From a virus (Duplodnaviria; Caudoviricetes): DNA of 64,000 nucleotides. Location of the stretch: IMG/VR virus record IMGVR_UViG_3300020151_001109, positions 1 to 64,000 of that record. One strand, written 5' to 3'. The notes under the pieces are model-generated. The model was not told the DNA's origin and did not search any database. It worked only from the letters and a program-made list of their open reading frames with translations. Both the position numbers and the translations under genes were made by a program. Below are positions 4,637 to 52,963 of this stretch, piece after piece (position 1 is the stretch's first letter; every line of letters starts with the position of its first letter).

Positions 4637-4687
4637 TAGGTGGGTACCCGACTTTGTACCCCTTCTCCGAAGTCGGGCACCCCCTTA
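4637..4687 (+). ncRNA. Hairpin with anti-SD-like loop (UACCCCUUCUC)
   Basis: 10-bp stem 4647-4656/4668-4677 with an extended lower stem; -10-like TACACT at 4631-4636 just upstream. Confidence 0.45.
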
Positions 4688-4706
4688 TCTTTATTTAGGA
4701 GCTTAA

Positions 4707-4976
4707 ATGGCTAAAGTTGCTGAAAACCAAAAATTGTGGAACAGCATAATGCGTCAGGCAAAAAGCAAGTATCCACCAAGAAGTCCAATGGCTACAACAT
4801 CATTTGCAGCTAATAAGTGGGCATCAGAAGAATATTCTAGACAAGGTGGACAATGGGTATCTTCGAAATCAGAAGTACCAACTAAATTTAGAGATTTAAA
4901 AACTGAAGAACAAAAAAAGAAAAAAGCTAAGATTGCAAAGGTCAAACGAGATAAGAAAAATGAAGGGTTAGTTTAA
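4707..4976 (+). CDS. Small basic hypothetical protein
   Basis: SD AGGAG; Lys-rich C-terminus. Confidence 0.7.
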   Translation: MAKVAENQKLWNSIMRQAKSKYPPRSPMATTSFAANKWASEEYSRQGGQWVSSKSEVPTKFRDLKTEEQKKKKAKIAKVKRDKKNEGLV

Positions 4977-4979
4977 TAC

Positions 4980-6689
4980 ATGAGTATTGATTTTAGTCCT
5001 CCGAGTTATAGGGCAGCGTCGTCTGACTTAACTATATCCATTTCACCACTAGGTCTTGTAGAACTTGCAGATGAAGAGTTTGAAGTCCACGGTCCACGAC
5101 TAAATCGTTATTCATTAAACTGGGCTATGTACCTAGGCCATCACTGGCCATATCGACGTGAGCTTGGTGAAGCTCAAATGGTTTACAACTATTACCGAGC
5201 ATTTACAGATTATTTAATTAACTTTACTTTTGGTCGAGGCGCAACATTTCGCAGCCCACATGCGACCGAAGCAATTATTCCAGACATCCTAAAGCGAGTT
5301 TGGGAAACAGATAATGATAAGCATGGCGTTCTTTGGGAAATGGGCCAGCAAGGCGGCGTATCAGGAGACTGCTTTGTTAAAGTAGCCTATGAAGAGGCTT
5401 ATGAAGATCCATCAGGTCGTAAACACCCTGGACGAGTAAGAATTCTGCCACTAAACGCATCATTCTGCTTCCCTGAATTTCACCCACACGACCGTTCTAG
5501 ACTTATTCGTTTTAAGCTTAAGTACCGCTTCTGGGGTACCTCCCTAGAGGGAACACGTCAAGTTTATACATATACAGAAATCTTGACTGACGACCGAATT
5601 GAAGAATACATCAACGATGAGCTAATTGACTCTCGACCAAACCCAATCGGCTTAGTACCGATCATTCATATTCCAAATGTAAGAGTTTCCGGATCCCCAT
5701 GGGGGCTTTCTGATTGTCACGACTTAATTGTTCTTAATCGTAATTATAACGAAGTAGCTACAGATATAGCAGACATCATTAACTACCATGCGGCACCCGT
5801 TACAGTTATCACCGGTGCTAAGGCCTCTTCCCTTGAAAAAGGTCCGAAGAAGGTCTGGGGCGGGCTACCAAAAGACGCTCAAGTCTTTAATCTAGAAGGC
5901 GGAGGCGCAGGACTTGACGGCGCCATGCGTTATCTAGAAATGATCAAAAGAGCTATGCATGAAATGATTGGTATCCCAGAAACAGCTTTGGGCCAGATCC
6001 AACCTATTTCTAATACTTCAGGAACAGCACTAGCAATTCAATTCCAGCCTTTGATGAACCGTTACCAACAGAAGATTGTTCAATACGGTGAGGGGCTTCG
6101 TCGAATTAACGAACTAGTCCTTCTTACGATTTCTTTAAAAGAACCAGAACTACTTACCTACAATCCAGATGTTAATGGGCCTATCCGTGGGGATCAATAC
6201 CCAGTACTTAATCCAGATGATTCAATGACCTATGAGAGCATTGTTCACTTCCCACAACCTCTACCACTAGACAAGCTGATCGTATTAAATGAGATTCAGA
6301 CTAAGATGTCTATGAACCTAGAAAGCCGTCAAGGAGCGCTAAGAACCCTAGGCGAAGAATTCCCGGCTGAAAAACTTGAAGAAATTCGTGTAGAACTTAT
6401 AGAGGACGCTAAGTCAGACGGCGCACTAAACCTCTTTAAGTCTCAAATAAACTCTGCTATTGCATCCCTTACTGGGCTCCTTCCAGATGGTGGGGGAGAA
6501 CTTCCACCAGGAGCTGACCCAGGCGATGGAACAGGCCCAGGACCTACGGGTCAACCTGGAATTGTCACCCCATTTGAGGCTCAGACAATCGAGCAGATGC
6601 AAACAGAACTCGTCACCAAAGCCTATGGAACTAAGCTTCCATCTCGTAAGGGCGTAGATGACGATAACAAATACCCTGGAGCAGGGTAA
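4980..6689 (+). CDS. Portal protein (SPP1 gp6-like)
   Basis: Size and position; motifs NPIGLVPIIHIPN, WGLSD and SNTSGTAL. Confidence 0.88.
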   Translation: MSIDFSPPSYRAASSDLTISISPLGLVELADEEFEVHGPRLNRYSLNWAMYLGHHWPYRRELGEAQMVYNYYRAFTDYLINFTFGRGATFRSPHATEAIIPDILKRVWETDNDKHGVLWEMGQQGGVSGDCFVKVAYEEAYEDPSGRKHPGRVRILPLNASFCFPEFHPHDRSRLIRFKLKYRFWGTSLEGTRQVYTYTEILTDDRIEEYINDELIDSRPNPIGLVPIIHIPNVRVSGSPWGLSDCHDLIVLNRNYNEVATDIADIINYHAAPVTVITGAKASSLEKGPKKVWGGLPKDAQVFNLEGGGAGLDGAMRYLEMIKRAMHEMIGIPETALGQIQPISNTSGTALAIQFQPLMNRYQQKIVQYGEGLRRINELVLLTISLKEPELLTYNPDVNGPIRGDQYPVLNPDDSMTYESIVHFPQPLPLDKLIVLNEIQTKMSMNLESRQGALRTLGEEFPAEKLEEIRVELIEDAKSDGALNLFKSQINSAIASLTGLLPDGGGELPPGADPGDGTGPGPTGQPGIVTPFEAQTIEQMQTELVTKAYGTKLPSRKGVDDDNKYPGAG

Positions 6690-6693
6690 CTCA

Positions 6694-6729
6694 GTTTAGG
6701 CTGACAAACTACGCAATATTTGTCAGGCT
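6694..6729 (+). promoter_or_regulatory. Putative late promoter (GTTTAGGCTGACAAA...CAGGCT)
   Basis: Same motif and 23-nt spacing as at 4140. Confidence 0.55.
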
Positions 6730-6803
6730 ATACACACTAAAAAAATCCGCAGGTCATCGTGGCACTAATTCGGACAACGACCTCTTACACCTAAGGAATA
6801 ATC

Positions 6804-7568
6804 ATGTCAGAAACAACCGAAATCGTTGGTTCAGCAATTGCGCAGGAAGCTTTCTTGCAAGATGTGCCTACACCAACAGAAAACCTCGTTACACCCATCC
6901 AATCGCAGTCTCCTAAATCTTATTCGGAAGAAGATCTAAAAAAGGTACGTGAGCAAGAGAAATCGAAGCTCTACCCTCAGATAGATTCTCTTAAGGAAGA
7001 ACTTACTGTTCTGAAGAAGGAGCGCGAAGAACGACTCGCAGAAGCTGACAAACTTCGTGCAGAGCAAGAAGCTGATAACCGTAAAAAGGCAGAGGCTGAG
7101 ATGGATGTCCGTCAACTTCTTGAATCTAAAGAAAAAGAGTGGGCGGAGAAACTAGAAGCTGAACGTTTAGAGCGTGAAAAAGCTTTTCTCCTTCTTGAAC
7201 GTGAACGCCAATACTCAGAACTAAACGAGTATCGGAACACACGCGTCTCACAGGAACAGGATAATATTCTTCCTGAGTTACTTGATCTTATTTCAGGTAA
7301 CAACGTTGAGGAGATTGAGTCTAGCATTTCAGGCCTTAAGGAGCGATCAACTCGCATTCTTGACTCTACACAGGCAGCTACGCAAAGTTTGCGTAGAGAG
7401 ATGGCAGGAACAAGAACTACGTTGCCTCCAACTCTAGACACAAGTGCAGATCAACAACAGTTTACGGCAGAACAAATTGCCAATATGTCTGTTGCTGAGT
7501 ATGCGAAATATCGCGGAAAGTTGCTCGGAAACGCAGCAGCTAGCAGTGGCAAGGGAATTTTCGGGTAG
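6804..7568 (+). CDS. Capsid scaffolding protein
   Basis: Charged coiled coil ending in a MSVAEYAKYR-type helix; directly precedes the major capsid gene. Confidence 0.8.
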   Translation: MSETTEIVGSAIAQEAFLQDVPTPTENLVTPIQSQSPKSYSEEDLKKVREQEKSKLYPQIDSLKEELTVLKKEREERLAEADKLRAEQEADNRKKAEAEMDVRQLLESKEKEWAEKLEAERLEREKAFLLLERERQYSELNEYRNTRVSQEQDNILPELLDLISGNNVEEIESSISGLKERSTRILDSTQAATQSLRREMAGTRTTLPPTLDTSADQQQFTAEQIANMSVAEYAKYRGKLLGNAAASSGKGIFG

Positions 7569-7612
7569 TAATACCACAATCTATTCATCAATGACTAAGG
7601 AGTAACACCAAC

Positions 7613-8689
7613 ATGGCATCAGCCGTAACCGGTACCGGCAATTTAGCCGCAGCCCCAACAGCGTACTCTGGCGCTAACAGCCAGCTTACACAAGCAATTC
7701 AGACCATCTGGTCAAAGGAAATCCTTTTCCAGTCAATGCCAATTCTTCGCTTCGAACAGTTCGCTGTTAAGAAGACAGAACTAGGTGTTGCACCAGGTCT
7801 ACAGATCAACTTTATGCGTTACAACAACCTCGGCTTCGCGGGTTCACTCGTTGAAGGTGTTCGTATGTCAACTAACGCACTAACAGCTCAACAGTTCTCA
7901 ATCACAGTTGCAGAGCATGGCTATGCAATTGCTGTATCTGAGCTTCTATTGAACGCTTCATTCGATGACGTAATGGCTTCAGCCTCACGTCTTCTAGGCC
8001 GCAACATGGCCCTTTATCTAGATGGTCAGGCTCGTGACACACTCATGGCCGCATCTTCAGTTATCTACGGCTACGACCGCTCAGGTCTTTCAGCTGCTAA
8101 TGACTGGTACGGAACAGGTACAGCAGGCACAAGCCGTGCATCCCTAACAGGTGCATTTGATCTTACAACTGGCGTTGTTAAGGATGCAGTAGAAACACTT
8201 GCAACCAAGAACATCCCTCGCCTAGGTGAGACATATGTTGCTTTCATTCACCCACACCAAAGCCGTAAGCTTCGTGACAACCCAGAATTTATTGAAGTTA
8301 CAAAGTACGCAGCTCCAGGTAACTTCATGCTAGGTGAAATTGGTCGTCTATACGACACAGTATTCATCGAAACAACACAGATCCAAAAGGTAACAAATGG
8401 TGCAGGTTCAGGCTACTCAGCTGATACAGCTGTAGCTGCAAACGCAATTTCTTACCCAACTGGCGGAGGTTATACTTCTCCAGTAACAAAGACCGGTAAC
8501 GGTAACAAGGACCGCTATACAGCTATCTTCATTGGAGATAACGCATTCGGTCACGCAATTTCTCTTCCAGTTGAGCTCCGCGATGGCGGTATCCTTGACT
8601 TCGGACGTGAGCATGCGCTTGCTTGGTACGCTATTTACGGTCTTGGTCTTATTACAGATCAGTCTGTAGTTCTAGCAGAAACCAACTAA
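7613..8689 (+). CDS. Major capsid protein (N4-gp56-like family)
   Basis: 358 aa with IHPHQ, GEIGRLY and DFGREH..AWY motifs; strong SD and highly expressed codon style. Confidence 0.9.
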   Translation: MASAVTGTGNLAAAPTAYSGANSQLTQAIQTIWSKEILFQSMPILRFEQFAVKKTELGVAPGLQINFMRYNNLGFAGSLVEGVRMSTNALTAQQFSITVAEHGYAIAVSELLLNASFDDVMASASRLLGRNMALYLDGQARDTLMAASSVIYGYDRSGLSAANDWYGTGTAGTSRASLTGAFDLTTGVVKDAVETLATKNIPRLGETYVAFIHPHQSRKLRDNPEFIEVTKYAAPGNFMLGEIGRLYDTVFIETTQIQKVTNGAGSGYSADTAVAANAISYPTGGGYTSPVTKTGNGNKDRYTAIFIGDNAFGHAISLPVELRDGGILDFGREHALAWYAIYGLGLITDQSVVLAETN

Positions 8690-8697
8690 TTTAACCC

Positions 8698-8734
8698 GTT
8701 AGGGGGGCTGGGCCTAAAAATCCAGCCCCTCAAC
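8698..8734 (+). terminator. GC-rich hairpin after the capsid gene (terminator or stabiliser)
   Basis: GGGGCTGG/CCAGCCCC stem with no U-tract. Confidence 0.45.
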
Positions 8735-8759
8735 ACAAACTTACAGGAGAATAATAATC

Positions 8760-9125
8760 GTGGCAAAAGCAAAAGTAACAGACGTCACTGGACGTCAACG
8801 TGAAGAACAGATCAGACTTAATGCAGATGCGCTTGCAGAACGCGCAAATGAAATGTCTATGGCTACAGCAGCAGCTGCAGTCAAGATGGAAACAGAAGTT
8901 CTTGATTTAACAGTTAAAGGCGAAGCAACTGTAATTGATGAGGTTGAAAGCGTAGGCGTAGACCTAGCTGATGATGCTCAAGTAATTAGAGTCGCAGAAG
9001 ATTTAGATTTTGTAACAATCGGCGTAGGAAATCACTTTTCTTTCAAAGCCGGTCAAAAGTACAAGGTAGCAAAGCATGTAGCTGTACATCTCCAAGAAAA
9101 GGGATATTTGTACGATCGCATGTAA
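8760..9125 (+). CDS. Hypothetical head-associated protein
   Basis: SD AGGAG, GTG start; follows the major capsid gene. Confidence 0.7.
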   Translation: MAKAKVTDVTGRQREEQIRLNADALAERANEMSMATAAAAVKMETEVLDLTVKGEATVIDEVESVGVDLADDAQVIRVAEDLDFVTIGVGNHFSFKAGQKYKVAKHVAVHLQEKGYLYDRM

Positions 9126-9142
9126 AGAAGCGCTAATAGATC

Positions 9143-9188
9143 GCCCGCTTCGACAGAGCTGCCCTCATGTCGGGGCGGGCCCTTTTTT
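9143..9188 (+). terminator. Intrinsic terminator with anti-SD-like loop GAGCUGCCCUCA
   Basis: 13-bp stem 9143-9155/9168-9180 followed by CCTTTTTT. Confidence 0.7.
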
Positions 9189-9220
9189 ACCGTGACTTAT
9201 CCGATAACTTGTTAGATGAT
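9186..9220 (+). promoter_or_regulatory. Putative late promoter (TTTACC-N23-GATGAT)
   Basis: Same spacing as the other members of the motif. Confidence 0.45.
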
Positions 9221-9247
9221 AGGTTTTGAAACTTAGTTGGAGGATTA

Positions 9248-10345
9248 GTGGCAAACATTCAGACCCTATCTGCTCGACTTAGAGCAGAAATCGGGGATAT
9301 TGGAAAATCTTTCGAGGAACAGTTTACTGGCGACGGTGTAACAAAAAGATTCCAACTTAGTCATTCCCCAATCAAAGGCGTATCTTTACGTGTATACGTA
9401 AATGGGGTAAACGTATCTCAAGCCGTATCCGTAGAAGAAGTTAACGGTTTATTTCAATTAAACGCCACTCCAGCAAGCGGAGCTATTATAAAGGTTTCAG
9501 GCGTAACATATAAGTATTTTACAGACACTGAGATTCAATATTACGTAACCTCAGCTTTTTATGATCATGCCTACAATAGTACAGACAGTAATGGAAGCCT
9601 AGCTACGCTCCCAACACTCCCTTTGGTTGAGGAGTACCCACTTGTCCTTCTAGCGTCCTCTATGGCCCTCTATACACTAGCCACCGACGCTGCCTTTGAT
9701 ATTGATATTATTTCTCCTGATGGGGTCTCTATCCCTAGATCAGAACGTTTTAGACAGCTGATGGAAATTGTTTCTTCTCGTAAGGAACAATACCGTGAGC
9801 TCTGCACCCTACTAGGTGTAGGTATGTACCGAATTGAAGTACTTACTCTGCGCAGAATTAGCCGTAGAACTAATCGATACGTTCCTGTTTATAAACCACA
9901 AGAAATTGATGATGGGTCTATTCCACAAAGAGTTCACCTTCCTAAACCTAATTATTGGGATACAACTCCTCCAGGCCCTGCCGCAACTAAAGACCTTGTC
10001 ATGAAAGCTGGCGACTCTTTCTCAGCAACATTTACTTTTGACGTAGATTTAACTAACTATACTCCGTTGTCTCAGATTCGTTTATATCCACAAATACCTG
10101 GAAATCAAGTAGGGCCGCTTCTTTTAGCTACCTTTACAATTACTAAGAGCAGATCTGTTTCTGGTGGAATTTTTGATAAACTTACCTTAACTTTGCCAAG
10201 CACCGTTACCGATGACCTACCAAGGACTAGCTACTGGGATCTACAATTAACTCGCCCTTCTGATGGCGTAACTCGTACATACCTAGAAGGAAAGATATAT
10301 ACTAAGCCCCAGGTAACAACTACCAATGGAGATTTCAGTGTCTGA
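9248..10345 (+). CDS. Head-tail adaptor/neck protein with Ig-like accessory domains
   Basis: Position after the capsid genes; [11 protein letters not shown]-domain, helical adaptor-like middle and YWDLQL..EGK C-domain. Confidence 0.55.
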
Positions 10346-12221
10346 TACGCCTAATTTAATTGGAATGCCTTCCGATAGTAATGACCCTAGTGTTTTCCTA
10401 TTGGGAGAAGTTGCTGAACCACAAATTGGCCCTACAGGTCCGCAAGGAGAAACAGGTCCGCGTGGTGTAACTGGCCCTACAGGAGCCACCGGTGCAACTG
10501 GAGCCTCAGTAACTGGTCCAACTGGTGCTGGTGCAACTGGTGCGACAGGTCCTCGTGGTGCTACTGGAGATCTTGGACCAACAGGTGTAGCCGGCCCAAC
10601 CGGTCCTCAGGGAACTGTAGGACCATCAGGTGCGACAGGAAGTCAAGGACCTACCGGTGCGCAAGGAGTTTCTGGCCCAACAGGTCCTGAAGGACCTAGA
10701 GGTACACGCGGAGAAACTGGTGCTACAGGAGCTACTGGTGCTCAAGGAGCTACTGGTTCTACCGGCGCAACCGGCTCTACCGGAACGGCGTCGACTGTTC
10801 CTGGACCTACGGGTTCAACAGGACCTACTGGTGCTACGGGCTCAACTGGAGCAACTGGGGACGCGGGCCCAACAGGTGCGACAGGTACTCAAGGAATTCG
10901 TGGCGCTACTGGCGCTACTGGGCCACAAGGAGATCTAGGCCCTACAGGCGTAGCTGGTCCAACTGGTGCAACAGGAACTGCGGGTGTAGCTGGCCCTGCA
11001 GGTATTACTGGGCCTCGTGGAGATTTAGGTCCAACTGGACCAACAGGATTAACTGGATCAACTGGACCACAAGGATCGACTGGACCAAGTGGACCAAGTG
11101 GACCAACCGGTTCTACTGGAAGTACTGGACCAACAGGTTCTACTGGTGCAGCTTCTACAGTCCCTGGACCTACAGGACCAACTGGTGCTAAGGGTGATCA
11201 AGGCGTATCAATTAGATACCAAGGAACTCTTGCTAATACAGGATTACTTTCAACAATTACTAACCCACAAATTAATGATGCGTATTTTATTGGGCGCGAT
11301 CTTTATGTGTGGGAAGGTTACGAGTGGGATAACGTAGGTCAGATTGTTGGACCTACCGGATCTACCGGACCAACCGGTGCTACCGGACCACAAGGTGTTT
11401 CTATAACACTTAAGGGTTCTAAAGCAAATACGGCAGCTCTTCCACCAACAGGTAACTCTATAAATGATGCCTGGATTGTTGATGCTGATGGTGACATTTA
11501 CGTTTGGAATGGAACAGCTTGGTATAGCGCTGGACAAATTGTTGGTCCTACAGGCGCAACCGGATCTACTGGCGCGACTGGCGCGACTGGTGCTACGGGG
11601 CAATCAATTACGGGCCCTACTGGAGCAACAGGTGCAAACTCAACTGTAGCCGGACCTACTGGTGCCACAGGTTCTACAGGTGCCACTGGAGCTACCGGAG
11701 CAACTGGAACTAACGGAACTAACGGAACTAACGGCGCTACTGGTGCGACAGGACCTACTGGTGCTACTGGTGCACAAGGTACTGGCGTAACAATACTTGG
11801 TTCGTATGCAACCCTCGGTGAATTACAAGCAGCATATCCAACAGGAAATGTTGGAGATGGTTATTTAGTAGCCGGTTCTCTTTATGTTTGGTCAGCAACA
11901 ACATCTGCATGGGTAAATGTTGGAAGCATTCAAGGACCTGCAGGAGCAACTGGTGCCTCAGGCACAAACGGAGCCACGGGCGCAACGGGAGCTACTGGAT
12001 CAACAGGATCTACTGGCCCTACAGGCGCAACTGGATCTACCGGTGCGAACTCAACTGTTCCTGGACCAACCGGGTCTAGTGGAGCAACTGGCGCGACAGG
12101 TGCAACGGGTTCAACAGGACCTACAGGGCCTGCAAGCACTACAATTCTTGATGTTGACGGTGGTGCTCCAAACTCTATTTATGGCGGAACAATTACGATT
12201 GACGCTGGAGGAATTATTTAA
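10338..12221 (+). CDS. Collagen-like fibre protein (G-X-T repeats) with three globular inserts
   Basis: Long GPT/GAT runs interrupted by three homologous G.A/GY....(L/I)YVW....W...G.I.G modules; GTG start after GGAG. Confidence 0.85.
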
Positions 12222-12625
12222 TGACAGTAAAAATTCAACTTCGAAGAGGTTTGGCTGCAAACTGGACGTCTAGTAACCCAACTCTTGCTGAAGGCGAGCT
12301 AGGTTTAGAAACCGATACCGGAAAATTTAAAGTAGGTAACGGTGTAAATCAGTGGACTGGTCTGTCATACTCTTCCGGTATAGCTGGTGCTACTGGTGCT
12401 ACGGGATCTACCGGAGCAACAGGCCCAACTGGCGCGGGAGCAACAGGTGCAACAGGTGCTCCTGGAGCTACTGGAGCAACAGGTGTAGCTGGTGATGGCG
12501 GCGTTGGAGAACTTTTAAAAATGGATGCACTATTAAACTTAGGTATTTATTTTCCTAAGACTACTGCGGTTGCAGGAACTGCATCTTCTACTACTACAAC
12601 TATCTCACCGATTACGCTGATCTAG
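12221..12625 (+). CDS. Short fibre with an Mtd/hyaluronidase-type N-terminal domain and a collagen segment
   Basis: IQLRRG.AANW...[20 protein letters not shown]...W..L.Y motif. Confidence 0.75.
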
Positions 12626-12637
12626 GAAGGAACCTAA

Positions 12638-15934: not shown

Positions 15935-15942
15935 TGGCCACT

Positions 15943-15977: not shown

Positions 15978-16006
15978 TCATAATATATCCCAGAAAGCAG
16001 GACTAG

Positions 16007-20729: not shown

Positions 20730-21110
20730 ATGGCCATTACATCCTCGCCAACCATACTGTCGGAGTCAGTAGACGCCTACATTAATGCTGGCAACACTAC
20801 CCGCTTGCAGACTATTACGGGTTCAACTGGAGCCATTAACATCTCCGTAACTAATGGTGCAGTTGCTCGCATGAGCTCACTAGCTGGAAACACTACAGTT
20901 ACTTTTACAAACCTCCCAAGCGGATACGCTAATCAGTGGCTTGTTGAAGTAGTTAGCCGTGGCGCTAATACCGTCACATTCTCTGGAGTTACATGGGATG
21001 GCGGCTCAGCCCCAACTATCGTAGCCTCTGGCAAGACTGTTCTAAAGTTCTACTCTACCGACGGTGGCACAACCATCTACGGCGCAGTAGAGTTTGCTAA
21101 CATCGCTTAA
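20730..21110 (+). CDS. Small virion protein
   Basis: VTW.GG.APT....GK..L.FYSTDGGTT.YG fibre-tip-type motif. Confidence 0.65.
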   Translation: MAITSSPTILSESVDAYINAGNTTRLQTITGSTGAINISVTNGAVARMSSLAGNTTVTFTNLPSGYANQWLVEVVSRGANTVTFSGVTWDGGSAPTIVASGKTVLKFYSTDGGTTIYGAVEFANIA

Positions 21111-21121: not shown

Positions 21122-21162
21122 AGCTCCCCATCGTCCCCCGGGATTGGTGGGGCTTTTCTTTT
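21122..21162 (+). terminator. Intrinsic terminator with C-rich loop
   Basis: AGCTCCCCA/TGGTGGGGCT stem, loop containing CGUCCCCC, then TTTTCTTTT. Confidence 0.6.
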
Positions 21163-42604: not shown

Positions 42605-42613
42605 GATAGTTAT

Positions 42614-42889: not shown

Positions 42890-42908
42890 AAATTAAGAAA
42901 GAGGGCAA

Positions 42909-43862
42909 ATGCACGCACCAAATACAAACCCACACCTGTCGGGATTAGCCAGGGCTACGTGGATGTTATTTGCCACTGTGGGAAGAGTTATGTCTTCTAG
43001 TGAGATTCAAGAAGGCAACTACATGAACGAGGGCCGAGACGCAATCAGATCGGCTATGACCGAGCTTAAACGCGCCGGATATATAAAGGCCGTGAAAGAG
43101 CAGACATCTAACGGTCGATGGGTTACGTCCCTTAAATTTACGGAGATTGGTAAAAAGTACGTCGACTTATTTAACTGGAATTACCAGCCAGTACCGACGC
43201 CTGATTTACCGACGCCTGGAATACCGTACGTCGGTGAACCAGTCACTACTAGTAGTAAGTCATTAGAGAGCTATAAAGAATTAGAATTACTACGTAATTC
43301 TAATCAATCGGGTGCCCCGATAACCAAGGAGGTTGAAATGGGTTGGCCAATTCTGGAAGAAGGCGAAGAGCCTAAGAAGAAAAAGCGTGGCTTTGTAGAA
43401 GACTCAGATTCTGGTGCTGTTGGAAAGATCCAGGATAAGCAGGCTAAGATTAACTTGAAGTACAAAGCAACAACCTTTGAAGCCGTCCCGGCATCTATGC
43501 GCAGATATGAACGCCTAGAAGACAACTGGACTACAGATGATTTGATTGCTGAGTTCTACGACAAGATCCGCGAACACTGTCCCGGCACTCCAGGACAAGT
43601 CAACGGCAAATCTTTAATTAGCTGGATGAATAAACTTGTGGGCCAGGGAGTTCACAGAACTTCAATCCTAAAAGGGATCCGTATGTTCTTTGCTGATCCT
43701 AGAAATTTACACAACTCCGGAATAGGAACACCAATGTGGCGTCGCTTCATTGCCTACTACCCAACAATCCACGGGTTGACAACAAAGTCTGAGGTCGAGT
43801 ATGTTGACGACAACTTCTTGGCACACCAAGAAAAAATGTTAAAACTACTTGGAGGCAACTAA
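42909..43862 (+). CDS. Replication initiator-like protein (N-terminal winged HTH)
   Basis: LSGLAR...EGRDAIRSAMTELKRAGYI pattern; internal repeats; coupled to a DnaC-like gene. Confidence 0.65.
   Translation: MHAPNTNPHLSGLARATWMLFATVGRVMSSSEIQEGNYMNEGRDAIRSAMTELKRAGYIKAVKEQTSNGRWVTSLKFTEIGKKYVDLFNWNYQPVPTPDLPTPGIPYVGEPVTTSSKSLESYKELELLRNSNQSGAPITKEVEMGWPILEEGEEPKKKKRGFVEDSDSGAVGKIQDKQAKINLKYKATTFEAVPASMRRYERLEDNWTTDDLIAEFYDKIREHCPGTPGQVNGKSLISWMNKLVGQGVHRTSILKGIRMFFADPRNLHNSGIGTPMWRRFIAYYPTIHGLTTKSEVEYVDDNFLAHQEKMLKLLGGN
43181..43320. repeat. Iteron-like repeats and palindromes (candidate origin)
   Basis: TACCGACGCCTG at 43192 and 43207, TACCGTACGTCGGT at 43222, ACTACTAGTAGT, and ATTAGAATTAC-tac-GTAATTCTAAT. 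Confidence 0.55.
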
Positions 43863-44846: not shown

Positions 44847-44850
44847 TGAT

Positions 44851-45261: not shown

Positions 45262-46481
45262 TGGCTGCAGATAATGAAGTGAGGCTAATATCTCGTGCTA
45301 TTCGCACTAGAGATATCTCCCCTCTTTTAGAGCGCGGTGTTGAGAGCAATTGGTTTTTTAATGAGGACAGCAGAGTTATTTGGGATTTCTTAAGAAATCA
45401 TTGGACTAAGTATCAAGAAGTACCTACAGCAACAACGGTTCTAGATAACTTCCCAACTTATAAACTGTTAGCTGTAGACGACTCACTGGATTATTTATTA
45501 GATCAATTAATTGAATTTAGAAAACGCCAAAAGTCTATTGAAGTTGTACAACAAGCTGCAGATGCTATCGCTGTTGGTGATCACAACTCTGCAATTAAAA
45601 TTATGGGCCAGGGCTTTGCAACCCTTATAGATGAAGGATCATATTCCCCAACTGAAATTGATTTGACTAAAGATGCTATGGGTCGTTACCAAGAGTATCT
45701 AGATATTAAAACTCGTCCTAACGGTCTACTCGGTCTTGCTACAGGATTCCAGGTTATGGATATGGCTACAGCAGGATTACAGCCAGGACAACTTGTAACT
45801 ATCATTGCCCCACCAAAGACCGGTAAATCTGTACTTGCAATGCAGATGGCCGTTAACGTACATAATGACGGCTTTGTCCCTATGTTCCAGTCTTTCGAGA
45901 TGAGTAACCTTGAGCAACAGCATCGTCACGACGCTATGCGAGCGCACATATCTCATGGTCGTATGGTTCGTGGAGCACTTAATCCTTCTGAGGAAACGCG
46001 CTATCAAAAGATGCTCACCGATATGGAAGGCATGCACAAGTTTTATCTAACCGAATCTATATCCGGCGCAACAGTTTCTCAGTTAGCCATAAAGCTTGAG
46101 AAGCTTCGCCCGCAGATCTTGTTTGTAGACGGTGTGTATTTGATGTTTGACGAGATAAGTCAAGAACGCGGAACACCGCTTGCTCTTAAGAACATTACTC
46201 AGTCAATGAAACGTTTAGCTCAGAAATATTCAATACCAATTGTTCAGAGCACACAGGTTTTAAGTTATAAGATGAAGAAAGGCCAGGTAACCGCTGACTC
46301 TATTGGTTACTCATCTTCCTTCCACCAAGACTCTGACGTTATCTTTGCTCTGCAGAGACAAGATGAAGAAGATGACAGCTCTCGTTTGCTAAGGATTGTT
46401 GCAAGCCGTAATTGTGGCCCAGCGGAGGTTGAATTGCTTTGGGATTGGGAAGAGGGGAAGTTTCAAGAATATGGAGCTTAA
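45261..46481 (+). CDS. dnaB: DnaB-like replicative helicase
   Basis: TGF..MD..T.GLQPGQL, APPKTGKS, SFEMS, FVDGVYLM, QDSDV and SRN motifs. Confidence 0.9.
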   Translation: MAADNEVRLISRAIRTRDISPLLERGVESNWFFNEDSRVIWDFLRNHWTKYQEVPTATTVLDNFPTYKLLAVDDSLDYLLDQLIEFRKRQKSIEVVQQAADAIAVGDHNSAIKIMGQGFATLIDEGSYSPTEIDLTKDAMGRYQEYLDIKTRPNGLLGLATGFQVMDMATAGLQPGQLVTIIAPPKTGKSVLAMQMAVNVHNDGFVPMFQSFEMSNLEQQHRHDAMRAHISHGRMVRGALNPSEETRYQKMLTDMEGMHKFYLTESISGATVSQLAIKLEKLRPQILFVDGVYLMFDEISQERGTPLALKNITQSMKRLAQKYSIPIVQSTQVLSYKMKKGQVTADSIGYSSSFHQDSDVIFALQRQDEEDDSSRLLRIVASRNCGPAEVELLWDWEEGKFQEYGA

Positions 46482-46734
46482 TATTGAGTATTCAGACTAT
46501 CCGTTTAACGGAACTCAGCTATGTAATGATTTAAATTCTAATCTTTTCTTTCCTGAGGAGTACACCGACCCAGAGGCACTTAGAGAAGCTAAAAGCATTT
46601 GTTCTTCTTGTCCGCTCGTTAATCAATGCCTGGAGTACGCCATAAAGACTCCGTGGCTAGACGGAATTTGGGGCGGAACCACTCCTCGTCAAAGAATACG
46701 AATGCGTGGAGCTAAAAATAGGGCTAATAGATGA
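46471..46734 (+). CDS. whiB: WhiB-family transcription factor
   Basis: C......LFFP...AKSICSSCP...CLEYA...GIWGGTT..QR. Confidence 0.9.
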   Translation: MELNIEYSDYPFNGTQLCNDLNSNLFFPEEYTDPEALREAKSICSSCPLVNQCLEYAIKTPWLDGIWGGTTPRQRIRMRGAKNRANR

Positions 46735-46949
46735 GTAAATCCTTTAGGCAATTAAAGCCTGATTACACAGGGACTATGGAATACGAAAATGTCGTATGCC
46801 ACGAATGCCCCCATTGTGAATCTAATCTTTGGCGCATACACGCCAGTTTTGACGATTACGAGATATCGCAGTATCTTTTAGACATGGAGTGCGCAATTTG
46901 TGGTACATACGCAAAAGCTCCAACGCCGTTAGATAGGGGAAATATATGA
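46731..46949 (+). CDS. Small zinc-ribbon protein
   Basis: CPHC...CAICG motifs; ATGA coupling. Confidence 0.7.
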   Translation: MSKSFRQLKPDYTGTMEYENVVCHECPHCESNLWRIHASFDDYEISQYLLDMECAICGTYAKAPTPLDRGNI

Positions 46950-47221
46950 GTCCAGAAATAGTTACGCTAGAGCATTCAGATATGGTCTTTAAACGCGCCC
47001 ATTCTAAAGGGTCTTGTAGAGGCCCATACTGCACAATCCATAATCGTTCTGATCATCACATGCGATCATTCCCTCAAATTTGGAATCCCATGATTTTCTG
47101 TATGCAACGCGTATGTTCTCACGGAGTAGGCCATCCGGATCCAGATGAAATCAATAACGATATTGTCGTCAAAATAGATCATGAGACGAACTGTTGTGGT
47201 TGCTGTGTACCGCGAGGGTGA
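46946..47221 (+). CDS. His/Cys-rich hypothetical protein
   Basis: H...C.GPYC.IH..SDHHM...C.HGVGHPDPD...CCGCC. Confidence 0.7.
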   Translation: MSPEIVTLEHSDMVFKRAHSKGSCRGPYCTIHNRSDHHMRSFPQIWNPMIFCMQRVCSHGVGHPDPDEINNDIVVKIDHETNCCGCCVPRG

Positions 47222-48194
47222 AGTTCAAAAAGCTCTTTTAAAGCTTGGCATAGACTGCTCAGAGGTTCGCAATGAACTACAGGGCCACTGTCCTTTACAC
47301 AAAGAGCGTACCGGCAGAGAAGATATAAACCCTTCTTGGTCCATGAATCAAGAGACCGGTGTTCATCACTGTTTTTCTTGCGGATACCGGGGAACACTTT
47401 TAAGTCTGGTAGCCGAGTTAAAAGAGTTTAAGACTTCTTTCGGTTTATTAGATTTTGAGGCGGCAAAGGGCTGGCTTACTTCTCATGTAGATGTTGACTT
47501 AGCTCAGCTAGTACGTCAAATGGAAGATGCAAAAAACAGTTATGTACGTTTACGTCAACCGGTTGCTATGGGTGAAGCAAGATTAGCTGTGTTCACTGAT
47601 CCTATAGATTCCGCGTTATCTGCGCGAGGATTAACTCTTGAGGCCTGTAAAACTTACTCAGTTAAGTGGGATAACAAAAAATCTATCTGGATTATTCCCA
47701 TAAGAAATGCTGATACCGGAGGATTAATGGGTTGGCAGGAAAAAGGTCAGGGACACAAGCATTTCTTTAACCGACCACCGGGAATACAAAAATCTAAAAC
47801 TTTGTTTGGAATAACGGAGTGGGCTGGCCCAACTATGGTTGTTGTCGAATCCCCATTAGATGCCGTCAAGGTGGGGGTCTGTCGAAATTCGACAGAGGGC
47901 GTCGCTTTGTGTGGTGTTACGGTAAGCGCAGCTCAGATAGATATAATGAAGCGAGCAGATAAACTCATACTAGCTTTTGATAACCCCAACGTTGATTCTG
48001 CAGGCAAAGCCGCTCTTGAGGCTTTTGTAGCCGTAGCTAGAAGCAATGGGATTGAGTTTTGGGCGTTTAACTATGGGGACTCAACCGCTAAAGATATTGG
48101 AGAAATGACCCCAGATGAGGTAGTATTTGGAATAGAGCATGCAACGCATTGCGTTATGTTGAGGGGATCATTAAATGTCAAAAGTAGGAACTAA
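47205..48194 (+). CDS. dnaG: DNA primase (CHC2 zinc finger plus TOPRIM)
   Basis: CPLH...PSWS...HCFSCG, VVESPLD and AFDN motifs; GTG start assumed (the ORF is open from 47181). Confidence 0.88.
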   Translation: MYREGEVQKALLKLGIDCSEVRNELQGHCPLHKERTGREDINPSWSMNQETGVHHCFSCGYRGTLLSLVAELKEFKTSFGLLDFEAAKGWLTSHVDVDLAQLVRQMEDAKNSYVRLRQPVAMGEARLAVFTDPIDSALSARGLTLEACKTYSVKWDNKKSIWIIPIRNADTGGLMGWQEKGQGHKHFFNRPPGIQKSKTLFGITEWAGPTMVVVESPLDAVKVGVCRNSTEGVALCGVTVSAAQIDIMKRADKLILAFDNPNVDSAGKAALEAFVAVARSNGIEFWAFNYGDSTAKDIGEMTPDEVVFGIEHATHCVMLRGSLNVKSRN

Positions 48195-48297
48195 AGGGTA
48201 TTGCAGTGATTGCGGTGATTGGGCAACGGACTGTAAGACACTAATTATAGCCAGCATCCCAGAAAAAGTTTGTAAGAATTGCAGGGATAAGCGATGA
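48175..48297 (+). CDS. 40-aa zinc-finger microprotein (not in ORF track)
   Basis: SD GAGGGG; MSKVGTKGYCSDC...VCKNCRDKR; ATGA-coupled to the next gene. Confidence 0.65.
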   Translation: MSKVGTKGYCSDCGDWATDCKTLIIASIPEKVCKNCRDKR

Positions 48298-48827
48298 TTA
48301 TTGGGCTTACCGGTTACGCTCAGTCTGGAAAAGACTCCGTAGCAAACATCCTTGTAGAGAATTACGGGTATCAACGAATCGCTTTTGCTGACCCCATACG
48401 TGACCTATTATATGCCACCAATCCAATGCTTAAAGAAGGGTATAGAGTTAAGGGATTGGTTGACGTATACGGGTGGGACAGAGTTAAAGTCGATTATCCC
48501 GAAGCTCGACGCCTTCTTCAAGAATTAGGTGTTGGTGCCCGTAAAGTTTTTGGTGATATGTTCTGGGTAAAACAAGCTCTACGCCAACTTGAAGTTGAGG
48601 GTAACTTTGTAATAACAGACGTTAGATATCCAAATGAAGCTAAAGCAATCAGGGAACATCAAGGCTCTCAAATTTGGCGTGTAAAGCGTTCCGGTGTTGA
48701 TGCTGTAAACTCTCATGATTCCGAATCCGCTATGGATGGGGAAAAGGTCGACCAGATCTTCGTTAATAACGGAACTTTGGAAGATCTCAAAGTTTTAATT
48801 AATACAAGAATGCGAGCATACATATGA
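48294..48827 (+). CDS. Deoxynucleoside monophosphate kinase
   Basis: IIGLTGYAQSGKD, FADPIR, RRLLQELG, ITDVRYPNE and HDSE motifs. Confidence 0.88.
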   Translation: MIIGLTGYAQSGKDSVANILVENYGYQRIAFADPIRDLLYATNPMLKEGYRVKGLVDVYGWDRVKVDYPEARRLLQELGVGARKVFGDMFWVKQALRQLEVEGNFVITDVRYPNEAKAIREHQGSQIWRVKRSGVDAVNSHDSESAMDGEKVDQIFVNNGTLEDLKVLINTRMRAYI

Positions 48828-49063
48828 TTATGGAGTATGGGTCTTGGGTCCTAGCCGTTATAGGTGTTGCTGGAATTTATTTTGTTGGGCGTAAAACTAT
48901 CTGGGGATGGCTAGTTCTTCTTTTTAATGAGGTTTTGTGGATTGGGTATGCATTAACTACTGACCAGTACGGCTTTATTTTCTCTGCTCTTGCCTACGCT
49001 CTTGTTTATATCAGATCTTATATTCACTGGTCTAAAGACAGAGTTAACGAGATTCCGTTGTGA
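48824..49063 (+). CDS. Small 3-TM PnuC-like membrane protein
   Basis: W.L..IG..G......K..WGW......LW..Y.....YG......Y....I.S...W pattern. Confidence 0.55.
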   Translation: MIMEYGSWVLAVIGVAGIYFVGRKTIWGWLVLLFNEVLWIGYALTTDQYGFIFSALAYALVYIRSYIHWSKDRVNEIPL

Positions 49064-50679
49064 CCTTTACAGGAACTCTTCTACCGTATCAAGTAGATGC
49101 CGTAGACGCGATGATTGCTCGTAAAAAGATGCTCGTCGCATATGATTTAGGGCTAGGAAAGACAGTGTTAACTATCTCTGCTATAGAATCGCTTAAGGAT
49201 AGCGGTTCAATCCGGGAGCCGGGAGTTATAATCTGTCTTTCCAGCCTTAAGTATCAGTGGGCTGATCAAATCAGGAAGTTTACAGATGGATCTGCAACAC
49301 CTTTGGTTATTGACGGAACGCCGAAACAGCGAGCTGAACAATATCAGCAAGCCCTCGACTGGGGGCATACACTCGTTGATTACGTCATTATTAACTACGA
49401 GCAAGTTGTTAACGACTGGGAGTATGTACGACAGCTCGCTACGGGATTCATTGTCTGTGACGAAGCAACCGCAATCAAAAGCTTTAGATCCAAACGTTCC
49501 AAGTACGTAAAAAAACTTGAAAGCCCCGTTAAGTTTGCTCTTACTGGTACACCGGTTGAAAACGGAAAACCAGAAGAGCTTTACTCTATTATGCAGTTCG
49601 TTGACGCAAAGGTCCTAGGTAGATTTGATCTTTTTGACTCCACGTTTATTATTAGAAATAAATTTGGCGGGGTAGAACGCTACCGGAATCTACCGCTACT
49701 AAACAAAACCCTATTAAATGCCTGCGTAAGAAAGAAACAGTCTGACCCTGATGTGTCCCCTTTCTTGCCGGAGACTATTCACTCTGAGCCCATATATGTT
49801 CAATTTGATCGGGCTGGAAGAAAACTTTATACCCACATAGTTAGAGACCTTCTGCTTAATCTAGAAGAGGCCCTAGATACTTTTGGAACCTCGTTTAACA
49901 TATTTTCTCATTACGGTCAGCAAAGCGATCAAGGTGGGCATATGGATGAGCTTAGGGGTTTAATAATGTCAAAGATGACGTGTCTACGGCTTCTTTGCGA
50001 TGACCCACAGCTACTAGCACTCAGCGCAAACAAGTTTGAAGACGGCGCAGTCGTGGTTGACGGTAACACTATAAACATACCGGGATTCCACGGAGGATCA
50101 GGATACGCAGCAGAGTTAAAAACTCTGGGGCTTTTAGACGGGTTAAAATCAAGTCCTAAATTGACAGTATTAAAGCAGTACGTTGAGGACTTCTTGTCTC
50201 AGTATGATGGAAACAAGATAGTGATCTTTTCAAGTTTTGTTGGTATGACTAAGCTTATACAAGAATGCTTACCTTATGAGTCAGTTACCTATACCGGTCA
50301 ACTTAATGCTAAACAAAAAGAAGAAGCAAAAGAGAAGTTTCAAACAGACCCTAATTGCCGTTTGTTTATATCCTCTGATGCGGGAGGCTACGGGGTAGAC
50401 TTGCCTCAAGCCAATCTACTTATTAACTATGATTTACCTTGGAATGCCGGGTTAGCCGTACAAAGAAATGGTAGAATTAAGCGAGCATCCAGCACTTGGA
50501 AAAAGATTGTAATTCAGGATATCCTTATGGAGAATTCTCTAGAACAACGCCAAAGAGAGATGTTAATACAGAAAACTGCCATATCTGATGCGGTATTGGA
50601 TGGGCAGGGCATAAATGATCGGGGCGGAGTTACCCTCTCAGTAGGCACACTTCGAGCTTTTCTGCAAGTCAATAGCTAA
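49060..50679 (+). CDS. SNF2-family helicase
   Basis: DLGLGKT, DEAT, LTGTPVEN, GGYGVDL and QRNGRI.R motifs. Confidence 0.9.
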   Translation: MTFTGTLLPYQVDAVDAMIARKKMLVAYDLGLGKTVLTISAIESLKDSGSIREPGVIICLSSLKYQWADQIRKFTDGSATPLVIDGTPKQRAEQYQQALDWGHTLVDYVIINYEQVVNDWEYVRQLATGFIVCDEATAIKSFRSKRSKYVKKLESPVKFALTGTPVENGKPEELYSIMQFVDAKVLGRFDLFDSTFIIRNKFGGVERYRNLPLLNKTLLNACVRKKQSDPDVSPFLPETIHSEPIYVQFDRAGRKLYTHIVRDLLLNLEEALDTFGTSFNIFSHYGQQSDQGGHMDELRGLIMSKMTCLRLLCDDPQLLALSANKFEDGAVVVDGNTINIPGFHGGSGYAAELKTLGLLDGLKSSPKLTVLKQYVEDFLSQYDGNKIVIFSSFVGMTKLIQECLPYESVTYTGQLNAKQKEEAKEKFQTDPNCRLFISSDAGGYGVDLPQANLLINYDLPWNAGLAVQRNGRIKRASSTWKKIVIQDILMENSLEQRQREMLIQKTAISDAVLDGQGINDRGGVTLSVGTLRAFLQVNS

Positions 50680-50689
50680 GGAGTCACGC

Positions 50690-50833
50690 ATGCCTAATCT
50701 ACCTAAAACCCCTACCCGCACAATCCGGGTTGCCCCAGAACTTTGGTCTGCCGTAAAGGAAAAAGCCGCTATAGAGGGCCGAACCGTTACAGACGTAATT
50801 ATCACTGCCTTGAAGGATTATGTAGCTAAATAG
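50690..50833 (+). CDS. Ribbon-helix-helix (Arc-like) DNA-binding protein (not in ORF track)
   Basis: SD AAGGAG; TRTIRVAPELWSAVKEKAAIEGRTVTDVIITALKDYV. Confidence 0.8.
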   Translation: MPNLPKTPTRTIRVAPELWSAVKEKAAIEGRTVTDVIITALKDYVAK

Positions 50834-50854
50834 GTCTCATGCTACACTAACCCT

Positions 50855-50998
50855 ATGAAATTGCTGGGGTTAGAAATACGCAGGGTGCCGCCTCTCCGAG
50901 GAAGGCTTGAAACCGTGTCCTGCTATCGTTGCGCCCAAACCTTTCAAGTATCTAAATCTAATCTTAGGGTCTATAACTACTGCTCTTCCTGCAAGTAA
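50855..50998 (+). CDS. 47-aa zinc-ribbon microprotein, leaderless (not in ORF track)
   Basis: TGCTACACT 6 nt upstream; CYRC...CSSC. Confidence 0.6.
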   Translation: MKLLGLEIRRVPPLRGRLETVSCYRCAQTFQVSKSNLRVYNYCSSCK

Positions 50999-51016
50999 AC
51001 CCCCAATCTTCCAGTT

Positions 51017-51075
51017 TTGATTTGTCGTACCCGTGTGTTAGGGTGTACCTACACATACTCTAAAGGAGGGTACAC
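51017..51075 (+). promoter_or_regulatory. Promoter with GTACC inverted repeats
   Basis: TTGATT...TGTTAGGGT; GTGTACC (51043) / GGTACAC (51069) inverted pair. Confidence 0.45.
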
Positions 51076-51519
51076 ATGGCAACAATAGAGCCGCCATCAA
51101 GAGCAGTACGCATAGAAACTAATTCATTAATGGCCCAAGTACGTGAGTTTATTGGGTTTAAGAAACGCATTGATGATTTAACAAAGCAACAGTCCGTAAT
51201 TAAAGTTGAATTAATGGATCTTGTTGAGCAAGAAGGAATTGAAGATGACAAAGGCCATTTTTGGTTAGAACTTCCAGAAGAAGTTGAGGGTTATGTTTCT
51301 TTACAACGTCAGCGCCGAGCTTCTCAAAAAATTAATACAGAAGTAGCGCTTCACTTACTTAAAGCTAGAGGATTAGCAGATCGTTGCATCAAGACTATTG
51401 AAGTTGTAGATGAAGACGAAATTATGGCGTGTCTATATGAAGATTTGTTATCTGAAAAAGACATAGATGATATGCTTACCCGCACTGTTACCTGGGCATT
51501 CGTGCCAAGTAAGAAGTAG
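51076..51519 (+). CDS. Hypothetical coiled-coil protein (Gam/Gp157-like architecture)
   Basis: Strong SD AAAGGAGG; N-terminal coiled coil followed by a beta/alpha region. Confidence 0.65.
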   Translation: MATIEPPSRAVRIETNSLMAQVREFIGFKKRIDDLTKQQSVIKVELMDLVEQEGIEDDKGHFWLELPEEVEGYVSLQRQRRASQKINTEVALHLLKARGLADRCIKTIEVVDEDEIMACLYEDLLSEKDIDDMLTRTVTWAFVPSKK

Positions 51520-51521
51520 CC

Positions 51522-51710
51522 ATGAAAGAAATGCGAATTAAAAATGTCTGGGTTCAAACAGGCTTTTATAGAAAAAGCTTTGGGCTTGGAGTATTTATAT
51601 CTAGCATCCAGTGTTCATTAGATCTAGGAATATTTTTTATACAAATAGAATTGCCGGCACGTCCATCCCGTCGACTAAAGAAATATGAGAAGCAATCTAA
51701 AAATGGCTGA
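51522..51710 (+). CDS. Hypothetical protein
   Basis: Fills the operon gap. Confidence 0.5.
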   Translation: MKEMRIKNVWVQTGFYRKSFGLGVFISSIQCSLDLGIFFIQIELPARPSRRLKKYEKQSKNG

Positions 51711-52167
51711 TGATGTTATAGACTCTATGTTTAATGGCTTGGGGGATTATTACCCAGGATCAAAACGTAAACGTAAGTCGATTGACCCTGCTAAAAAGAA
51801 AGAATTACCAAAAGAAGGCTGGGACGCTAAACCCCAGGTAAAGACTCTTCCAAATGGTAAGACTATCGAGTTGTATAGTGCCGGATCTCTTTGCGAAGCA
51901 TTGAAGAGGCCCCTAGTTACTATACGTCTTTGGGAGCGCAAGGGGTATATTCCCCGAGCCCCATACAGGCTTAGATCTATCGTCGTAGACGGTAAGAAAA
52001 AACCTGGGTGGAGAATGTATAGTCGTGCTATTATTGAGTCCACAATACAAAGCTTTCAATCCCGGGGTCTTATAGACTCTAAGAGGATTGATTGGAATCG
52101 ACATCCAGATCTTTCAATTGAATTATTGGAAAACTGGACTAAGATTCATGAAAACGAAACCAACTAA
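51703..52167 (+). CDS. MerR-like HTH DNA-binding protein
   Basis: YSAGSL..AL.R...TIRLWERKGYIP....R........RMYS. Confidence 0.75.
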   Translation: MADDVIDSMFNGLGDYYPGSKRKRKSIDPAKKKELPKEGWDAKPQVKTLPNGKTIELYSAGSLCEALKRPLVTIRLWERKGYIPRAPYRLRSIVVDGKKKPGWRMYSRAIIESTIQSFQSRGLIDSKRIDWNRHPDLSIELLENWTKIHENETN

Positions 52168-52206
52168 CCTATGGCAAATGGCTATGGCAATATGAAAGGA
52201 AACACC

Positions 52207-52899
52207 GTGTCACAAGCACCTAATGTCTCTTCTTATCTAGGAGCAGACCCAGTATCACCAGTAATGACCGAAGTAGAAGAAGATCTGTTTATTGAGGACA
52301 GCGAATCTGATTTTCCAGATCGCTCCTCTGTTATTCAAACGGGATGGGCCGCAGCAAAGCGTGCAGTTTCCGAAGCAAGCAAATCATTCACAACTGATTT
52401 TCGGTTTGATGAAGATGTGCAGTTAGTAAAATTCCTTTCCGCAGAACCAATGAGCTTTTTGCAACACTGGGTAAATCGTCCAGGCAAGAAGTCTTTTGTT
52501 GGTTGGGATAACGATCCGCTATCTCGTGTTGGAAATAAGCCTGAGCGCAAGTTTGCATTCAGTGTTGTTAACCTCTCTGATGAAGTTCCTCAGATTCAAC
52601 TTATGACTGTTGGCGTACGTTTGTGCGGACAACTCGAGAAGTTAAATGCTGATAAGAAAATTGGACCTATTGATCGTGCCGATATTTATTGGGCGGTTAG
52701 CAAGTCCGGTATTGGAACAAAAACTTCATACTCAATCATGCCAGTCAAAGAACGCGACTTGGCAGAGGACTGGGATCTTGATCCCGTTACCCTCTCTAGT
52801 GTAATTTCTAAAATGAAGCCTCTAGGACCTGATGCACTCCGTGTATCGACTGGTGCTGAGCTTGAAGAAATTGCGAGAGAACTGCTGGCTGGCCAGTAA
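52207..52899 (+). CDS. Single-stranded DNA-binding protein (gp32-like, inferred)
   Basis: QHWV, SKSG.G.KTSY.I.PV; position before polA; GTG start after AAAGGA. Confidence 0.6.
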   Translation: MSQAPNVSSYLGADPVSPVMTEVEEDLFIEDSESDFPDRSSVIQTGWAAAKRAVSEASKSFTTDFRFDEDVQLVKFLSAEPMSFLQHWVNRPGKKSFVGWDNDPLSRVGNKPERKFAFSVVNLSDEVPQIQLMTVGVRLCGQLEKLNADKKIGPIDRADIYWAVSKSGIGTKTSYSIMPVKERDLAEDWDLDPVTLSSVISKMKPLGPDALRVSTGAELEEIARELLAGQ

Positions 52900-52912
52900 C
52901 TCTCGATTCCCC

Positions 52913-52963
52913 GGTTGGGGAGTTTTGCTGTTTTTGCCTCCTTCTTGGCAGAACTCCCCAACC
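52913..52963 (+). ncRNA. 17-bp hairpin with CCUCCUU loop upstream of polA
   Basis: Stem 52913-52929/52947-52963; loop GUUUUUGCCUCCUUCUU. Confidence 0.6.

Follow-up and report, generated by a model that had tools for sequence, protein, structure and literature searches.

Several bacterial RNAs use a C-rich or C/U-rich stretch to pair with the Shine-Dalgarno (SD) sequence of mRNAs. The small RNA (sRNA) 6C (Rfam RF01066; B11 in M. tuberculosis) forms stable hairpins whose C-rich loops pair with G-rich ribosome-binding sites (RBSs), including that of the replication gene dnaB, without Hfq or ProQ, and actinobacterial loops of this kind repress G-rich RBSs without a chaperone (PMC6486639). UCCC-type CU-rich loops, that of the terminator included, of RNAIII of S. 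aureus (terminator hairpin H14, and H7/H13) and of LhrC of Listeria occlude the SD of target mRNAs; LhrC is a precedent for a terminator loop acting as pairing seed (PMC4132741). In the icaR mRNA of S. aureus, an anti-SD motif in the 3′ untranslated region (UTR) pairs with the SD in its own 5′ UTR. A phage hairpin, the gp43 operator of T4 and RB69, lies immediately 5′ of the DNA polymerase SD and combines a conserved loop with a variable stem. Here we describe three hairpins with anti-SD-like loops, called H1, H2 and H4, in a myophage represented by IMG/VR virus record IMGVR_UViG_3300020151_001109 (99,534 bp), bases 1-64000 of which form the 64,000-nt stretch analysed here (the window).

The phage elements resemble 6C in being stable hairpins with C-rich loops and in belonging to a host that is likely of the same phylum, but 6C is a separate chromosomal sRNA that carries two C-rich loops, whereas the phage elements are single hairpins embedded in mRNAs. 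H2 recalls LhrC and RNAIII as a terminator carrying a C/U-rich loop; these, however, are chromosomal sRNAs of Firmicutes that have validated targets and carry several seeds in one molecule, whereas each phage hairpin has one seed and candidate targets. Unlike icaR, the mRNAs upstream of H2 carry no matching SD in their own RBSs. H4 occupies the place of the gp43 operator, but the T4 polymerase is of family B and its operator a protein-bound 5-bp stem with an 8-nt loop, whereas H4 precedes a family-A polymerase gene, has a stem of 12-18 bp and shares similar loops with two sites away from polA. Searches of Rfam gave no match at gathering score in the window; around H1 and H4, the matches with E up to 10 were spurious and of miRNA type. 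Neither Rfam nor the literature found contained anything comparable to these hairpins.

Three conserved hairpins and their loops

A previous sequence-only reading of the window had listed four stems with unusually large C/U-rich loops, and every loop and target string that it gave is present where it was placed. All four regions (Table 1) form hairpins more stable than shuffled sequences, with z from -2.9 to -4.7 (H1, -29 kcal/mol, z -4.2; H4, -30.7 kcal/mol, z -4.7). The unpaired C/U-rich motif that characterizes C-rich-loop anti-SD sRNAs such as 6C, LhrC, RsaE/RoxS and RNAIII is found in the loops of H1 and H4 in this phage and in that of H2 in relatives, where the H2 loop is an open stretch of 10 nt, A(C/A)CGCCCUCC. 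The claim of a large loop does not hold for H3, whose proposed loop is mostly paired, with 4 nt left. H3 and its flanking gene 20730-21110 occur only in the window phage and a 95%-identical relative, and H3 was ruled out as a member of the set. The earlier reading, too, had found no clear target for it. A genome-wide scan of all intergenic hairpins added no other strong one whose loop is C/U-rich.

H1, H2 and H4 all start 14-18 nt past a stop codon. H1 lies 14 nt past the stop of open reading frame (orf) 4217-4624 and 22 nt ahead of the start of orf 4707-4976, which precedes the portal gene; its 3′ side carries only an interrupted U-rich tail. H2 begins 18 nt past the stop of orf 8760-9125. 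H4 is 14 nt past the stop of orf 52171-52899 and 8 nt before AAGGAGG, the SD of the family-A DNA polymerase gene (52984-54963). A GC-rich stem directly followed by a U-tract, as in intrinsic terminators, is found at H2 and H3 and not at H4 of the window phage, which has no U-tract after its stem. H2 is thus a canonical terminator, and H4 is terminator-like in one subclade, where a short loop, CCCUCCUU, is followed by a U-tract in a form resembling H2.

Conservation was followed in related viral loci, 80 retrieved with the DNA polymerase as query and 80 with the portal protein, and in five complete relatives of ~100 kb, making six complete genomes of which two are near-identical. The family as a whole comprises more than 100 contigs of this size. 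Relatives with these hairpins span 68-95% DNA polymerase identity. Each of the 37 distinct sites homologous to H1 has a strong hairpin, and 31 have UUCUC in the loop; in the other six, from several relatives, the loop is replaced by GUAA (three), GCAA (one) or 6-nt loops (two). A strong hairpin with CCCUC is present in 33/33 distinct H2 sites (27 with a U-rich tail), including all six complete genomes. Upstream of the polymerase gene, 48 of 53 distinct regions have a hairpin of at least 8 bp with CUCC or CCUC in its loop.

The loops are fixed to a consensus at each site: UACCCCUUCUC-C for H1, CGCCCUCC for H2 and (A/G)(C/U)CUCCUUUCUCU for H4, the three sharing the anti-SD core CUCC. UUCUCC occurs in 11 of 12 H1 loop variants. 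All 11 H2 variants contain GCCCUC and eight of them CGCCCUCCU, while CUGCCCUCA represents a changed-loop lineage. CUCCUU is present in 27/27 H4 variants and CCUCC in 17; in eight, the loop includes the complete 11-mer ACCUCCUUUCU, which is the common bacterial 16S tail, used here as a stand-in for that of the host. This 11-mer is a widespread 3′ end of bacterial 16S rRNA (PMC6288834).

Under these fixed loops the stems change by compensation. In gap-free alignments, covariation reached 0.65 for H1 against 0.34 in shuffled alignments (0/500 reach the real value), with double changes in 9/9 pairs and slid controls at or below 0.27, and 0.74 for H2 against 0.23 (0/500), with double changes in 9/12 pairs. 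The H1 and H2 alignments were selected for unbroken stems, so that complete pairing in them follows from the selection, unlike the compensatory changes. For H4, MAFFT alignments were structurally inconsistent, so a covariance model was built and its matches were aligned. In the 29 distinct rows from the + strand, standard pairs fill 340 of 341 cells, including 18 G.U, and none is A.C; conservation of the loop core is 90-93%. In the 95%-identical relative (G005), H4 is near-identical but escaped the model, probably through its speed filters. Conserved loops on covarying stems, which the earlier reading had put forward as a test of its family, are therefore found for H1, H2 and H4, and not for H3.

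The same data bear on the strand. The H4 covariance model scored ~74 bits for the + strand and ~34 bits for the - strand. Over all loci, 111 large-loop hairpins with at least 85% pyrimidine in the loop lie on the + strand, compared with 3 on the - strand. Because of these two asymmetries and of G.U pairs without A.C, the selected molecule is, by comparative criteria, the sense-strand RNA. Chance inverted repeats with no biological role were considered, since target statistics computed on the window alone are at chance level (see below), but positions kept in dozens of diverged relatives with compensatory changes refute this for H1, H2 and H4, as does the strand excess of pyrimidine-rich loops; we give chance next to no probability. 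Comparative support that the three hairpins are real is strong. Each complete genome has one copy per site, so that the elements are, judged by copy number, three orthologous features and neither a dispersed family nor the 'network' of the earlier proposal.

Cultured Streptomyces phages with a related DNA polymerase show no anti-SD loop ahead of polA: BRock and LuckySocke carry a stable hairpin there, and GiJojo and pSt2308 have no gap. In LuckySocke (73836-73911; L224; BRock, L227) the hairpin between the preceding gene and polA is very stable, with a pyrimidine-rich loop, UUCUUUCU, that lacks CCUCC. Because BRock and LuckySocke keep the polA hairpin without the loop motif, the function of the stem is probably older than the motif.

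These phages are one argument for a plainer explanation, in which the hairpins are terminators or elements of RNA processing or stability and the loops are kept for another reason, for example as decoys of the 16S tail for an RNase or toxin attacking the anti-SD region. It accounts for the position of all hairpins just past stop codons, for the U-tracts at H2, H3 and one H4 subclade, and for the six of 37 H1 sites with another loop, mostly a tetraloop; the decoy variant also accounts for the H4 loops identical to the 16S tail (8/27 variants). But a fixed loop is unnecessary for termination, the H1 and H2 loops are not copies of the 16S tail, and no gene here supports a decoy. We regard this explanation as decidedly unlikely.

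The anti-SD character of the loops was assessed by counting the ribosome-binding regions that hold a complement to the loop of at least 7 nt, for real and shuffled loops. Summed over the six genomes, real loops found 40 such regions against 21.6 for H1 (9/500 shuffles as good), 24 against 8.2 for H2 (0/500) and 52 against 28.4 for H4 (3/500). Because real loops exceed shuffled ones 2-3 fold, the loops appear anti-SD-like in base order, beyond their composition and in nothing more specific.

Table 1. Positions of the hairpins, candidate partner sites and WhiB-family genes
Feature	Position	Strand	Description
H1	4638-4685	+	17-pair stem with one A.C mismatch; open 11-nt loop UACCCCUUCUC at 4657-4667
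H2	9143-9180	+	Capsid-operon terminator hairpin; loop region GAGCUGCCCUCA at 9156-9167; U-tract 9184-9189
H3	21122-21154	+	4-nt loop, U-tract; ordinary intrinsic terminator
H4	52913-52963	+	18-bp stem; open 15-nt loop UUUUUGCCUCCUUCU at 52931-52945
RBS of putative replication initiator	42895-42911	+	GAGGGCA at 42901; orf 42909-43862; best-supported candidate partner of the H2 loop
RBS of orf 51076-51519	51060-51078	+	AAGGAGGGUAC; second orthogroup with a conserved GGAGGG-type SD
WhiB-family gene 1	46516-46701	+	Above Pfam cut-off
WhiB-family gene 2	57172-57396	+	Above Pfam cut-off
WhiB-family gene 3	85798-86010 of the full record (G000), beyond the window	-	Above Pfam cut-off

Candidate partners of the loops

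SDs of the GAGGG/GGGGG type make up ~7% of ribosome-binding regions. Among the 77 orthogroups present in at least four of the five independent genomes, exactly three keep a G-rich SD in four of the five: the putative initiator (orf 42909), the DnaC-like loader (orf 43862) and orf 51076-51519, the first gene beyond a 270-nt gap in the replication module, to which all three belong. The initiator is the most consistent, with GGAGGG, GAGGGG or GGGGGG kept in ~14 of 16 further distinct orthologues (36-98% identity; L197-L223) between unrelated flanks. A GGAGGG-type SD is the complement of GCCCUCC in the H2 loop. Duplex energies were taken from loop-only runs, RNAduplex runs with stem bases being noisy and therefore discarded. 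The four best H2-loop partners among the 77 orthogroups are orf 42909 (first), 54963, 43862 and 51076, all in the replication module, and their RBSs are computed to bind the H2 loop 2-4 kcal/mol better than the 16S tail. Of the pairings proposed earlier, that of the H2 loop with the initiator RBS is thus strengthened by the retention of a GGAGGG-type SD in relatives, a support of an indirect kind, and the pairing itself we infer.

The other proposed partners fared less well. H4 had been paired with the RBS of the loader (43851) and with a site at 54952; in relative G005 uncompensated changes break these matches, since U has become C in the H4 loop and C has become U in the loader SD, and the 54952 site is unchanged though the loop has changed. 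Neither of the sites at 2184 and 60271, assigned to H2, is at an SD position: one is within a gene and one after a start codon. As a whole the target list is at chance level in the window genome by comparison with shuffled loops, and the proposed network of specific targets is mostly chance.

Two further regions came up in these comparisons. The start region of the gene after the DNA polymerase, UGGGGAGAGGCAAA(A/G)UAAUG at 54940-54965, is near-identical in all six genomes; it lies within the 3′ end of the polymerase gene, and coding constraint may explain its sameness. An AAA+ (MoxR-like) ATPase gene (83343-84767 of the full record, - strand) and its orthologues have a non-canonical purine-rich RBS, GAAGGG. 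A link of H1 with this gene was tried and rejected: a 10-nt match in one relative and a 9-nt match in another have no equivalent in the window phage or in relative G003.

The candidate partner nearest at hand is the SD directly downstream. H1 and H4 end 5-10 nt ahead of the next SD, and their loops could pair with it to gate translation of the next gene, for example in autoregulation of the DNA polymerase. The H4 loop of the window phage can form 10-11 pairs with the polA SD (-15.7 kcal/mol, rank 5 of 144 ribosome-binding regions), as can that of a close relative. However, the downstream SD ranks 63-103 for H4 in two other genomes and 46-113 of ~145 for H1, and native combinations of loop and leader did not outperform swapped combinations (575/5000 for H4, 2778/5000 for H1), which speaks against co-evolution. 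H2 has no adjacent SD. A pseudoknot sequestering the SD does not fit either, since by geometry a linker of 5-10 nt is too short to span an intact stem of 12-18 bp. Control in cis is accordingly given a small probability.

Possible roles of the loops

From the conservation, covariation, strand and anti-SD content of the hairpins, and from the conserved class of complementary RBSs, we tentatively favour as one possible account that H1, H2 and H4 are terminator or 3′-end hairpins embedded in mRNAs, whose loops would serve as anti-SD seeds in the manner of 6C or LhrC; the pairing of loop with RBS, its direction and its timing we infer. By their anatomy, the three hairpins would each end a translation or transcription unit, and the stem would probably act as a terminator or stabilize a 3′ or processed end. 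The single-stranded loop would then display the anti-SD core CUCC/CCUCC as a pairing seed for G-rich RBSs. Because H2 ends the capsid operon, which is presumably heavily transcribed, and its loop GCCCUCC complements the SDs of the initiator and of orf 51076-51519, the build-up of late RNA could lower translation of replication genes.

A more specific version of this account, an mRNA-borne translation timer used by a widespread lineage of freshwater actinophages, is doubtful in our estimation. The late terminator RNA of the capsid operon would titrate the GGAGGG RBS of the initiator, beside two 16S-tail-like loops, and would do so without a chaperone, in parallel to the 6C of the host. Metatranscriptome contigs of relatives, from four studies, cover mainly 6.6-8.8 kb with the scaffold and capsid genes; contigs cannot show RNA ends. 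Cover of the contigs in RNA libraries drops past ~8800, near a strong hairpin at 8698-8734 directly 3′ of the stop of the major head protein gene, with a G-rich stem of 11-14 bp and the loop CCUAAAAA.

A number of observations weigh against loops acting as anti-SD seeds. On the window genome alone, real loops do no better than shuffled ones, which were as good in 501/1000 (H1), 123/1000 (H2), 134/1000 (H3) and 121/1000 (H4) cases, and the longest loop match is likewise no better. In the window phage, the 12-nt H2 loop is partly closed by GAG/CUC self-pairing in the minimum-energy fold, with 5 nt left open. The H1 stem can function without a C/U-rich loop, because six of 37 sites carry another loop, four of them GNRA-type tetraloops. 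At the loader, just 4 of the 16 wider relatives have the G-rich SD, which sits inside the initiator coding sequence. The best z-scores among the 77 orthogroups, ~-2.9, are modest, and no conserved specific partner of H1 or H4 was found among these orthogroups. Co-variation of loop and target, suggested earlier as a check, yielded no informative case, the variable loop positions lying outside the predicted 7-8 bp duplex. Orthologous RBSs share ancestry, and something other than the hairpins may account for the retention of G-rich SDs. Finally, the metatranscriptome contigs show no RNA ends, expression or processing of any hairpin.

The conservation pattern would be equally well explained if the loops were bound by a protein and the hairpin served only to present the motif. 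The protein might come from the phage, as an antiterminator or translational repressor would, or from the host, like ribosomal protein S1 or some other factor. Models are lambda N-boxB, the MS2 coat-protein operator and the T4 operator for gp43, which lies ahead of the gene for that same polymerase. An invariant loop on a variable stem, as at H1, H2 and H4, is the classic signature of a hairpin recognized by a protein, and pyrimidine-rich single strands are ligands of S1. The positions fit as well: H4 immediately precedes the SD of the DNA polymerase gene, and its distance to the start codon varies little (16-22 nt), and H2 is a terminator between the capsid and tail genes, a place for which controlled read-through would make sense. 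Yet the three sites have three different loops, of which a single protein would read only CUCC, and the likeness to anti-SD sequences and to the 16S tail would be a coincidence. Among annotated genes no recognizable RNA-binding or N-like protein was identified and SpoVS, whose gene was confirmed in the phage, is the sole candidate; most small orfs have no family. We consider protein binding somewhat unlikely.

RNA-based control of translation in phages is known from a few antisense RNAs, such as c4, oop and sar. If anti-SD pairing were true for H1, H2 and H4, a phage would have a simple and general route to silence one class of genes with a by-product of another, and the C-rich-loop mechanism of Actinobacteria would extend to their viruses. 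Hairpins with fixed anti-SD loops are kept across hundreds of environmental actinophage contigs, and these short, well-delimited elements come with one definite candidate partner, the initiator RBS.

The phage, its likely host and other structures

The genome has a G+C content of 43.7%, and its + strand holds nearly all genes up to 61.7 kb. Family searches identified the structural genes for the portal, major head protein, tail sheath, and baseplate and tail-fibre proteins, together with a replication module comprising the DnaC-like loader, a DnaB-like helicase, a primase, a helicase, the family-A DNA polymerase and a UvsX-like recombinase. No tRNA was found in the 64-kb window, and a phage RNA polymerase or sigma factor, sought because the hairpins might be read as promoters, was not found among the large proteins. 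Megablast of two 6-kb pieces against cultured phages gave no match.

The nearest DNA polymerases are those of Streptomyces phages of BRock type (~39% identity), and DNA runs holding this polymerase are mostly lake or other freshwater metagenomes. Because of these two features and of the three WhiB-family genes, the host is most likely a freshwater actinobacterium; WhiB-bearing freshwater actinophages have been described (PMC6802176, PMC10202952). The presence of three WhiB genes in one phage points to phage-directed control of transcription.

Near-identical bidirectional terminator hairpins (A5-C5/6GG...CCG5/6-T5) are located close to both ends of the record, at 56-88 and 99415-99447, which suggests that the genome is circular or terminally redundant and that the record was cut close to this element. 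At 60218-60260, a near-perfect hairpin of 19 pairs with a UAAC loop lies 9 nt upstream of the start of orf 60269-60514, and its 3′ arm includes the SD-like GAGAGG of this orf. Beyond the window, at 77292-77341 of the full record, a perfect A/T-rich palindrome of 21 bp with an 8-nt loop marks the point where gene orientation turns from + to -.

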